From Escherichia phage HY02: 64,000 nucleotides of DNA. How positions within the stretch are numbered: position 1 is the stretch's first letter; every line of letters begins with the position of its first letter. Under the pieces are notes generated by a model that worked only from the letters and a program-made list of their open reading frames with translations, was not told where the DNA came from and ran no database searches. Position numbers and translations under genes: made by a program. Below are positions 3,816-3,947 of this stretch, piece by piece. Where the stretch lies: the sequence record KM092515; one strand, written 5' to 3'.

Positions 3816-3947
3816 CAGAAGACCGTTTACAGCAAAACTTAAACAATCTATTTCTCCGGTAAAGAAAAGGCGAAGGTTCGATTCCTTCACTCGGCAGATG
3901 TCGAGTTGGTGTAATGGTAGCACTTAAGATGATAAACAACGGTCTGG
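3816..3947 (+). ncRNA. stem-bracketed RNA candidate, copy D, enclosing a permuted tRNA-like module (YrlA-like architecture)
   Basis: AGACCGTT (3820-3827) pairs with AACGGTCT (3938-3945); interior begins TTTACAGCAA. Module 3872-3923 has, in this order, T-arm GAAGG-TTCGATT-CCTTC, acceptor 3' strand ACTCGGC, 4-nt loop, acceptor 5' strand GTCGAGT, then D-arm GTGT-AATGGTA-GCAC. Confidence 0.45.

Follow-up and report, generated by a model that had tools for sequence, protein, structure and literature searches.

Embedded in the tRNA gene array of Escherichia phage HY02 (sequence record KM092515) is a segment, element D (3813-3950), which contains the arms of a tRNA in an order that no ordinary tRNA gene has, and the question that this locus raises is whether such a sequence encodes a rearranged tRNA, is what remains of one, serves as a processing signal, or specifies a non-coding RNA of another kind. 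Coordinates below refer to one strand of a 64,000-nt stretch of this phage (hereafter, the window), and all features are on the + strand unless otherwise indicated. The window is from a Felixounavirus (Felix O1-type phage): 250 phage records match the 427 nt around element D, most of them at 95-99% identity (Felixounavirus and related Ounavirinae), the hosts of these phages being Escherichia, Salmonella, Shigella and Citrobacter. An initial annotation had proposed that positions 3872-3923 form a circularly permuted tRNA-like module with the layout of bacterial YrlA-type Y RNAs. The interpretation that we favor, to which we assign a probability of roughly 0.7, is that element D is a phage-encoded YrlA-type Y RNA, built of a helical base and a tRNA-mimicking top and tied to a divergent Ro60 paralogue encoded nearby, and that it is not a decoding tRNA.

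The base of element D is formed by a 4-bp stem (UUAC, 3813-3816, with GUAA, 3947-3950), an internal loop in which AGA (3817-3819) faces a single G (3946), and a core helix, AGACCGTT/AACGGTCT (3820-3827 with 3938-3945), this being the enclosing AGACCGUU/AACGGUCU helix of the initial annotation. The 5' strand of the core helix adjoins a single-stranded motif, UACAGCAA (3828-3835), presumed to be the protein-recognition element. Within this base lies a hairpin resembling an anticodon arm (UUUCU-CCGGUAA-AGAAA, 3851-3867, with 5 bp and a 7-nt loop), named here the V hairpin after the YrlA nomenclature for the stem-loop located 5' of the T arm (PMC4201824). It is separated by the spacer AGGC (3868-3871), equivalent to a variable loop, from the T arm (GAAGG 3872-3876, TTCGATT 3877-3883, CCTTC 3884-3888). 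The acceptor-like hairpin follows, with its 3' strand first (ACTCGGC, 3889-3895), then a loop (AGAT, 3896-3899) and the 5' strand (GTCGAGT, 3900-3906), and finally come a UG linker corresponding to U8-G9 (3907-3908) and the D arm (GTGT 3909-3912, AATGGTA 3913-3919, GCAC 3920-3923). Every base quoted for the module in the initial annotation was found in place, including the seven acceptor pairs, one of them a G-U (3901/3894). All the tRNA elbow nucleotides are present in D (U8, A14, G18 G19, A21, G53-C61, U54 U55 C56 and A58), as are two other tRNA-type T-loop and variable-region positions, namely G57 and a pyrimidine (C3871) at the last variable-loop position.

When D was returned to the normal tRNA order (acceptor 5' strand, UG, D arm, A3850, V hairpin, AGGC, T arm, acceptor 3' strand and A; 74 nt with CCA appended), ARAGORN called it as a tRNA-Thr(GGU), and a de-permuted construct with the CUUAA/UUAAG inner helix as anticodon stem produced no ARAGORN call. 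As the V-hairpin construct is the one recognised as a tRNA, D corresponds to an entire cloverleaf whose formal opening point lies between the D arm and the anticodon-like hairpin, and not inside the anticodon loop. This requires a correction to the original description of the module as devoid of an anticodon arm, since the V hairpin and AGGC are found directly 5' of the T arm.

Chance is not a likely source of this arrangement. A strict descriptor (perfect 5-bp T stem with a TTCRANN loop, an immediate perfect hairpin of 5-10 bp, 1-3 nt, and a D arm with an A...GG loop) matched once on both strands of the window, and first-order Markov copies gave 0.03 matches each (9 in 300 copies of 64 kb). 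There are 22 perfect T arms on the + strand of the window, and only that of D precedes a self-paired acceptor hairpin and a D arm. Likewise, a covariance model of the module scored D at 64.8 bits, against 32.7 bits for the best tRNA-tRNA junction in the window.

To follow the structure through evolution, D homologues were located via the conserved terminal helices, and not via the pairing under test, in Mooglevirus (Michonne, Sf13), Suspvirus (phiSUSP1), the unclassified phage pEC-M719-6WT.1 and several Felixounavirus variants. Across the resulting 11 distinct Ounavirinae sequences the whole structure was 97.0% paired, compared with 43-53% when the partners were slid, with values of 100% for the basal stem and 95.5% for the core helix. 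The acceptor-like hairpin was also 100% paired, and three of its pairs had changed on both sides, such that ACUCGGC-AGAU-GUCGAGU becomes ACACGU-UACG-GCGUGU or ACCCUUC-GCCAAACA-GAAGGGU in relatives. The T arm GAAGGUUCGAUUCCUUC is invariant across Felixounavirus, Mooglevirus, Suspvirus and the unclassified relative, and the D arm GUGUAAUGGNAGCAC has an invariant stem in Ounavirinae and a single variable site, loop position 3918. Equally invariant in D of all Ounavirinae is UACAGCAA, which is also found in elements A-C (see below). The linker is UG in the window and UA in Michonne and in the more distant Klebsiella phage phi1_175008 and Mycobacterium phage Whirlwind. By contrast with these constant parts, the V loop has 7, 6 or 5 nt in relatives (CCGGUAA, CGGUAA, CUGGUAA, CUCAAAA, GGGUA), and because it varies in both length and sequence it is not a conserved anticodon. 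In YrlA the T and D stems are reported to be conserved and the AS, V and AC regions variable (bioRxiv 10.1101/312249), and the variation of D among Ounavirinae, as read from the alignment, is of that pattern.

Some individual variants of D were also recorded. Several Felixounavirus versions (among loci L002, L014 and L015) have the 6-nt V loop CGGUAA and not the 7-nt CCGGUAA, and in phage Si3 the acceptor loop reads AGGU instead of AGAU. At about position 6460 of L021 a C61 to A change breaks the G53-C61 pair of the T arm. In L017 (IMGVR_UViG_2706796742_000001; ~6440-6560) the 5' half of D, up to the T loop, is fused to the 3' part of the T arm of tRNA-Lys(UUU); this natural deletion cost the genome the 3' half of D along with the long hairpin and the bulk of tRNA-Lys, and shows that T-loop-to-T-loop recombination takes place in the array.

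A literal reading of the architecture would make D a true circularly permuted tRNA gene, giving rise to a working tRNA-Thr(GGU) through circularisation and re-opening at the acceptor stem. In line with this, D has the complete set of four arms and a variable loop of 4 nt, the phage lacks a tRNA-Thr(GGU) and has UGU only, and in record MZ726792 tRNAscan-SE called a 129-nt 'tRNA-Thr-GGT'. The comparison with relatives points elsewhere. Position 33 is C instead of U, the 'anticodon' is GGU, CAA or none at all among close relatives, with a loop of 5-7 nt, and the acceptor-like stem, of 6, 7 or 8 bp, is closed by stable tetraloops such as UACG. Moreover, CCA is not encoded in D, though it is encoded by the true tRNAs of the array. 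In its native order the sequence was rejected by tRNA finders: ARAGORN called no tRNA over D either in the window or in native-order D, a search of the whole window with Rfam at gathering score returned 23 tRNAs only and no match over D, and the Rfam tRNA model aligned the V hairpin, AGGC and the T arm as anticodon arm, variable loop and T arm with 22 bits, below its threshold of 29. To our knowledge, bacteria also lack the bulge-helix-bulge (BHB) splicing endonuclease pathway, which counts against a permuted tRNA. The permuted tRNA genes of the red alga Cyanidioschyzon merolae share with D the placement of the 3' half of the cloverleaf upstream of the 5' half and the short loop joining the acceptor strands, but they yield working tRNAs via a circular intermediate and have conserved anticodons, unlike D with its degenerate 'anticodon' loop, its lack of CCA and its bacterial-virus context. 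The degenerate loop of variable length, the closed acceptor stem of variable length and the missing CCA exclude a working permuted tRNA in practice. As for the 129-nt call (MZ726792 27251-27379, or 1464-1592 of L001, our label for MZ726792.1), it runs from the end of element C across the 5' half of D, and is an artefact that borrows 3' sequence from element C.

The same cloverleaf could alternatively be a non-functional relic, the junction of a tandemly duplicated tRNA gene in which the 3' part of one copy was left next to the 5' part of the other. Such an origin would fit the completeness of the de-permuted cloverleaf and its ARAGORN assignment, the recombination between T loops seen in L017, which is left without the 3' half of D, and the damaged G53-C61 pair of L021. 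It would not explain why the T and D arms remain invariant and the hairpin undergoes compensatory changes over four genera whose partner proteins differ by 11-15%, nor why modules of this layout, with independent sequence, turn up beside homologous genes in phages that are very distant. None of the tRNAs in the window is closely related to D either, the best identity being 0.75, a value within the range seen between tRNAs of the same array (up to 0.82). The invariance over four genera, the compensatory changes and the independent recurrence make a dead recombination relic unlikely.

We now return to the interpretation of D as a Y RNA, and to the neighboring protein. Element D begins 890 nt 3' of the stop codon of a gene on the same strand (1508-2923) coding for a 471-aa protein with the domains DUF7788 (Pfam, 1.7e-43) and DUF2828 (2.7e-29) and a MIDAS motif (for metal ion-dependent adhesion site), DVSSSM, at residues 279-284; PHROG 850 labels it 'RNA-binding protein'. 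An AlphaFold2 model built on a 32-sequence alignment (predicted local distance difference test score 86.5, predicted template modelling score 0.86) was compared with PDB structures by Foldseek, and the top 11 matches were all Ro60, Rsr or phage Ro60 proteins aligned over the full length, among them Xenopus and human Ro60, Deinococcus Rsr and the Ro60 of Thermus phage phiLo (E 1e-7 to 7e-6, template modelling score 0.50-0.65, 10-16% identity). Matches after these 11 were isolated von Willebrand factor A (vWA) domains only. The model thus predicts a very divergent Ro60-fold protein, consisting of a helical-repeat ring and a vWA domain with MIDAS. Relatives of this protein were detected in 708 phage records of the collection searched, those of mycobacteriophages having been named 'Ro-like RNA binding protein' by their annotators; the best 120 homologues are all phage-like, and DUF2828 proteins occur in phages, plants and mimivirus-like sequences.

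The module recurs beside genes of this family in phages unrelated to HY02. In Klebsiella phage phi1_175008 (L007), whose protein has 47% identity to the 1508-2923 product, the 1-kb 'gap' 3' of the gene consists of five elements, each combining a basal stem and a 3-nt/1-nt internal loop with a helix of 6-8 bp, variable in sequence, and NNCAGCAA, and two of the five, within ~500 nt after the gene, enclose modules of T arm, acceptor-like stem and D arm (T-AS-D) of unrelated sequence. Similarly, Mycobacterium phage Whirlwind (L010; 34% identity) has three elements 3' of its 'Ro-like RNA binding protein' gene, the middle one with a T-AS-D module located 150 nt after the gene. Further T-AS-D modules were found in viral contigs L030, L039, L048, L069, L081, L061, L070, L062 and L034. 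Over 80 viral contigs fetched via the protein, the strict descriptor produced 25 matches on the gene strand and none on the opposite strand, and the covariance model added modules of at least 40 bits, many of them directly upstream of the start codon of the gene. The Levitt pair is kept in both named relatives, as G15:C48 and A15:U48 in phi1_175008 and as G15:C48 in Whirlwind.

A family alignment of these modules (A3) was 97.6% paired, with double changes at 14 of 16 pairs; as most of the sequences had been picked by a descriptor that demanded pairing, these figures are partly circular and were not relied on; the case is instead built on the Ounavirinae homologues found by synteny and on characters that the descriptor did not include. 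Modules found by their core alone nearly all had a complementary helix around them, followed by C(A/C)GCAA on the 5' side and, on the 3' side, by (C)UG or (C)AG, the C(A/C)GCAA motif being upstream of the modules in L007, L030, L010, L081, L048, L061, L039, L070, L062 and L034. Since neither the flanking helix nor C(A/C)GCAA formed part of the search descriptor, they constitute evidence independent of the search. Relaxed descriptors (T-AS-D, stem plus CAGCAA, closed module) were too noisy for counts, and from them only the strand asymmetry was kept (275 against 124 matches by strand for CAGCAA, with control motifs at 49-197), together with individually inspected cases. Taken together, the comparisons demonstrate, at the level of sequence and predicted fold, a conserved tRNA-like domain inside a conserved terminal module that is co-inherited with a predicted Ro60-fold protein.

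Two variations on this design were also seen. In some T4-like metagenomic phages (L070 3788-3834, L073 3829-3873, L035 2254-2298 and L069 3879-3923) the Y-like RNA immediately upstream of the DUF2828 gene has its T and D arms linked by just a few nucleotides, without the acceptor-like hairpin, and a second short CAGCAA element reaches the ribosome-binding site of the gene, which places the RNAs in the mRNA leader. The other variation consists of tRNA-shaped RNAs of normal order, present in L061 (5893-6009 and 6016-6130), in Aeromonas phage Aeh1 (L009; 9050-9169 and 9184-9306) and in L074 (~7840-7950). These have an acceptor 5' strand, D arm, module hairpin, T arm, acceptor 3' strand and encoded CCA, and their anticodon arm is replaced by a 3'strand-UG-loop-5'strand-NNNN-C(A/C)GCA hairpin, which is the A-D module closed at its end, so that they represent the circular permutation opposite to that of element D. 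The normal-order RNAs of L061 adjoin a permuted copy (~6151-6291), so that both circular orders stand side by side, and one of the Aeh1 copies is annotated in GenBank as a 122-nt tRNA-Val.

A role of the tRNA-like module independent of the DUF2828 protein has also to be considered, either as an RNase P/RNase Z processing signal on the tRNA transcript or as a decoy for tRNA-targeting nucleases or tRNA-binding defence proteins. Element D is inside a tRNA array with which it is probably co-transcribed, its 7-bp acceptor-like stem has the length preferred by RNase P, which has been reported to cleave the YrlA of M. smegmatis (PMC4201824), its elbow nucleotides are intact and its V hairpin looks like an anticodon arm. 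The flanking tRNAs, however, already provide RNase P and RNase Z sites, and the V loop is not conserved as the target of an anticodon nuclease would be. Neither version of such a role accounts for the constant embedding of the module in a helix-plus-CAGCAA design shared with siblings that are not tRNA-like, or for its travelling with DUF2828 genes in phages without an adjacent large tRNA array, as in Whirlwind or in L039, L070 and L034, where it is in the 5' leader of the gene. We consider this explanation doubtful, while granting it a small share of the probability.

The proposal of a YrlA-type layout in the initial annotation is supported by the order of the parts, by the predicted Ro60 fold, by the compensatory changes in the hairpin, by the recurrence beside homologous genes and by sub-threshold YrlA matches in relatives. 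YrlA is the tRNA mimic to which Rsr/Ro60 binds in Salmonella, Mycobacterium and many other bacteria, and it is a substrate of the modifying enzymes TruB (pseudouridine 55) and DusA. As published, YrlA consists of a terminal protein-binding helix, an optional V hairpin, a T stem-loop, a closed acceptor-like stem-loop, a U-purine linker and a D stem-loop (Chen et al. 2014, PMC4201824; Wang et al. 2018, bioRxiv 10.1101/312249), and D follows the same order, its T stem-loop preceding the D stem-loop on the 5' side, with the closed acceptor-like stem-loop in between and a helix of the two ends enclosing them all. Also shared are the nucleotides of the tertiary interactions (UUCRA T loop, A14, G18 G19, A21, U-purine linker and variable-loop pyrimidine), a same-strand location no more than ~4 kb from a Ro60 orthologue, the Ro60 fold of the partner of D being a prediction, and a 7-bp acceptor-like stem, as in M. 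smegmatis YrlA. The two differ in that the V hairpin of D is a full look-alike of an anticodon arm and in that its gene lies within an array of phage tRNA genes, accompanied by three siblings of shorter length. With the YrlA model RF02553, the relatives of D scored 38.3 bits (Whirlwind) and 36.4 and 34.3 bits (the Klebsiella phage), with E-values of 2.5e-6 to 2.5e-5, which also showed that the model works in the library used.

Other Ro60-associated RNAs are less similar. Thermus phage phiLo encodes a Ro60 that binds two phage Y-like RNAs and host polynucleotide phosphorylase (PNPase) (PMC12135203). Its system (Yrl1/Yrl2; PMC12135203; PDB 9L5Y, 9KOP) has in common with ours a phage Ro60-fold protein with several Y-like RNAs by its gene, and its Ro60 is among the best structural matches of the window protein; on the other hand, it is a recognisable TROVE protein, and its RNAs are of a stem-bulge-stem type with a CGAA motif, for which a tRNA-like domain is not described. 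Yrn1 of Deinococcus radiodurans is a Ro60-bound Y RNA whose T-arm-like stem-loop tethers PNPase, with the T and D elements in the opposite order and, between them, a hairpin that corresponds to the anticodon arm (PMC4201824).

Several observations weigh against the reading of D as a Y RNA of a Ro60 protein. At the level of the protein, no TROVE domain was detected by Pfam at E<=10 in the 1508-2923 product, unlike the partners of YrlA, which are TROVE proteins by sequence, and a profile of the product found no sequence match among PDB chains, Ro60 included; in the absence of likeness to TROVE or PDB chains at the sequence level, the Ro60 assignment rests on predicted structure. At the level of the RNA, the covariance-model check suggested with the initial annotation came out negative for D, with no YrlA or Y_RNA match in Rfam at E<=10 over 3650-4110, and the relatives reach about half of the 69-bit gathering score of RF02553. 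In the Ro60-binding module of YrlA the 5' strand carries GNCGAAN0-1G, for which D has AGAAGACCGUUUACAGCAA, and C(A/C)GCAA replaces that motif in all siblings and relatives of D. YrlA has a Levitt pair G15:C48 or A15:U48, whereas the corresponding positions in D are A15 (3914) and C48 (3871), not a standard combination, and close Ounavirinae relatives have C, A or U at position 48. The minimum free energy (MFE) fold of D alone is unexceptional (z -1.8), and the helix between its D arm and core helix is AU-rich with two alternatives, CUUAA/UUAAG or AUCU/AGAU, neither of which is backed by covariation. With regard to distribution, a module of at least 40 bits within 4 kb was present at only ~15 of 63 non-Ounavirinae viral loci, and the natural loss of the 3' half of D in L017 implies that D is dispensable in that genome. 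In balance, D has the architecture and the genomic logic of YrlA, yet is outside the YrlA family as currently defined, just as its partner protein is outside TROVE, and its best description is that of a sister family, the Y-like RNAs of the DUF2828 branch of Ro60.

Regarding expression, two sites matching the sigma-70 consensus are located upstream of tRNA-Pro and of the block with elements A-D, at 2942-2970 (TTGACA-17-TAATAT) and 3033-3062 (TTGACA-18-TAAAGT); both are promoter-like by consensus match only. The next strong + strand promoter match is at 4345-4373, and no terminator-like site was found on the + strand between 2942/3033 and 4345, so A-D are probably on the same transcript as the tRNAs. 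Following this scheme, A-D would be transcribed with the neighboring tRNAs from the sites at 2942 and 3033 and released as RNase P and 3'-processing nucleases excise the flanking tRNAs. The terminal module would then bind the Ro60-fold protein encoded 0.9 kb upstream (1508-2923). In Deinococcus, Salmonella and phage phiLo, Y RNAs tether or gate the protein ring for PNPase (PMC4201824, PMC12135203). By analogy, the L-shaped tRNA-like domain of D may tether or gate the ring toward a factor that recognises tRNA elbows, candidates being host PNPase, RNase P and tRNA-modifying enzymes, and host RNA surveillance or repair could in this way be redirected during infection. Following the cleavage of M. 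smegmatis YrlA by RNase P (PMC4201824), this enzyme could also nick D between 3899 and 3900, which is plausible because the acceptor-like stem is 7 bp long.

An association with RNA repair is also brought to mind by Listeria phage AG20 (L012), in which a DUF2828 homologue (3959-5479) ends the tRNA array 1.3 kb upstream of a gene for an RtcB-type 'tRNA splicing ligase' (6713-8020). This gene pair echoes the rsr-yrlBA-rtcBA RNA-repair operon of Salmonella; the link to RNA repair through the AG20 ligase gene is suggestive only.

Element D is one of four paralogous RNAs, A-D, that lie between tRNA genes and share a single terminal design. It includes a 4-bp basal stem that differs in each of them, an internal loop of 5' AGA versus 3' G, a helix AGACC/GGUCU that never varies and is lengthened by two or three covarying pairs (AA/UU or GU/AC), and a conserved single-stranded (U/A)(A/U)CAGCAA, so that the ends of A-D read AAGACC..-..UACAGCAA ... 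GGUCUG. Element A (3255-3333), between tRNA-Glu and tRNA-Met, has a UGAC/GUCA stem, the AGA/G loop, an AGACCAA/UUGGUCU helix and UUACAGCAA. Between tRNA-Met and tRNA-Asn, element B (3422-3487) combines UUGC/GCAA, AGA/G and AGACCGU/ACGGUCU with AUUCAGCAA, and in element C (3727-3805) the corresponding parts are GAGC/GCUC, AGA/G, AGACCAA/UUGGUCU and AUACAGCAA. Only D encloses a permuted tRNA cloverleaf in this terminal module.

Apart from the partial tRNA match on D, the sole Rfam family that scored the short elements was Dicty_Class_I_RNA (RF01414), with 19.7 bits for A (3263-3329), 24.4 bits for B (3430-3483, E 0.014) and 15.2 bits for C (3735-3801), and with 25.0 and 24.0 bits for two elements of the Klebsiella phage (L007 6551-6604 and 6635-6689); none of A, B, C or the Klebsiella phage elements reached its gathering score of 41.5 bits. 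Like A-D, the Class I RNAs of Dictyostelium have a 5' AAG and a short stem with covariation, then NNUACAGCAA on the 5' side, a middle part that varies, a 3' strand and CUG, and their defining combination of a terminal stem and the 11-nt motif CCUUACAGCAA (C6, C9, A10 and A11 invariant) is found in all four phage elements. The C..CAA positions invariant in the phages are those invariant across Dictyostelia (PMC7919456). On the other side, Class I RNAs are eukaryotic, have their own promoters and lack a tRNA-like domain, and the one directly bound partner that has been shown is the RNA recognition motif (RRM) protein CIBP/Rnp1A. The resemblance could be convergent. A pull-down with DdR-21, one of the Class I RNAs, contained the uncharacterised protein DDB_G0281243 (bioRxiv 10.1101/2020.04.05.026054). 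A joint reading can be put forward tentatively, with the odds against it: the helix, (U)ACAGCAA and CUG would make up an element by which RNAs are recognised throughout the DUF2828 branch of the Ro60 superfamily, the abundant Class I RNAs of dictyostelid amoebae, whose function has been open since 2004, would be eukaryotic Y-RNA counterparts of A-D, DDB_G0281243 would be their DUF2828 partner with a Ro60 fold, and the tRNA-like domain would be an addition to this element that could be built in either circular order.

If D is a Y RNA as we propose, the Ro60/Y RNA system would extend to a branch of proteins that is very large and has so far gone unrecognised (the 708 phage records mentioned above), and the DUF2828 branch would gain an RNA signature of its own, a helix followed by ACAGCAA. 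By keeping the four arms of the cloverleaf in rotated order within a tRNA array, D gives direct sequence support to the suggested origin of YrlA-type RNAs from tandem tRNA transcripts. Since Felix O1-type phages, which serve in the typing and biocontrol of Salmonella, can be manipulated with ease, they offer a simple infection system in which to test for the as yet unknown effector of the tRNA-like domain of YrlA. Should the likeness to Class I RNAs reflect a shared protein partner, it would also provide a specific hypothesis, open to quick testing, for an RNA class whose mechanism is unknown. These results are thus of relevance for the fields of Ro60/Y RNA and of phage tRNAs, the link to a eukaryotic RNA class being uncertain but testable.

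The C/D region is unannotated or mis-annotated in the 250 deposited phage genomes: the matching records have over it no annotation or small 'hypothetical proteins', and public entries include 'tRNA-OTHER' and 'tRNA-pseudo' labels, with small hypothetical proteins overlaid on the RNAs. The array in which it lies contains 25 tRNA genes (3089-7913) and is polymorphic just upstream of C, as many relatives have a tRNA-Asp(GUC) between tRNA-Tyr and C (cf. L001 1287-1364), in the place of which the window carries two small hairpins (3669-3726). Hairpins with the loop UUCUUACGAG have three exact copies in the window (3700-3722, 6805-6827 and, on the - strand, 17748-17757); at up to one mismatch this loop was observed 13 times against 3.5 expected, and two of the occurrences flank tRNA or Y-like elements. 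Finally, directly 3' of D (3949-4092) there is a near-perfect stem of ~24 bp around small hairpins (MFE -46 kcal/mol, z -6.2), and one of the inner hairpins, ACAGACC-UUAAGCAA-GUCUGG, is a miniature AGACC/ACAGCAA/GGUCUGG module. This structure may be a fifth, differently built member of the family, or a processing structure.

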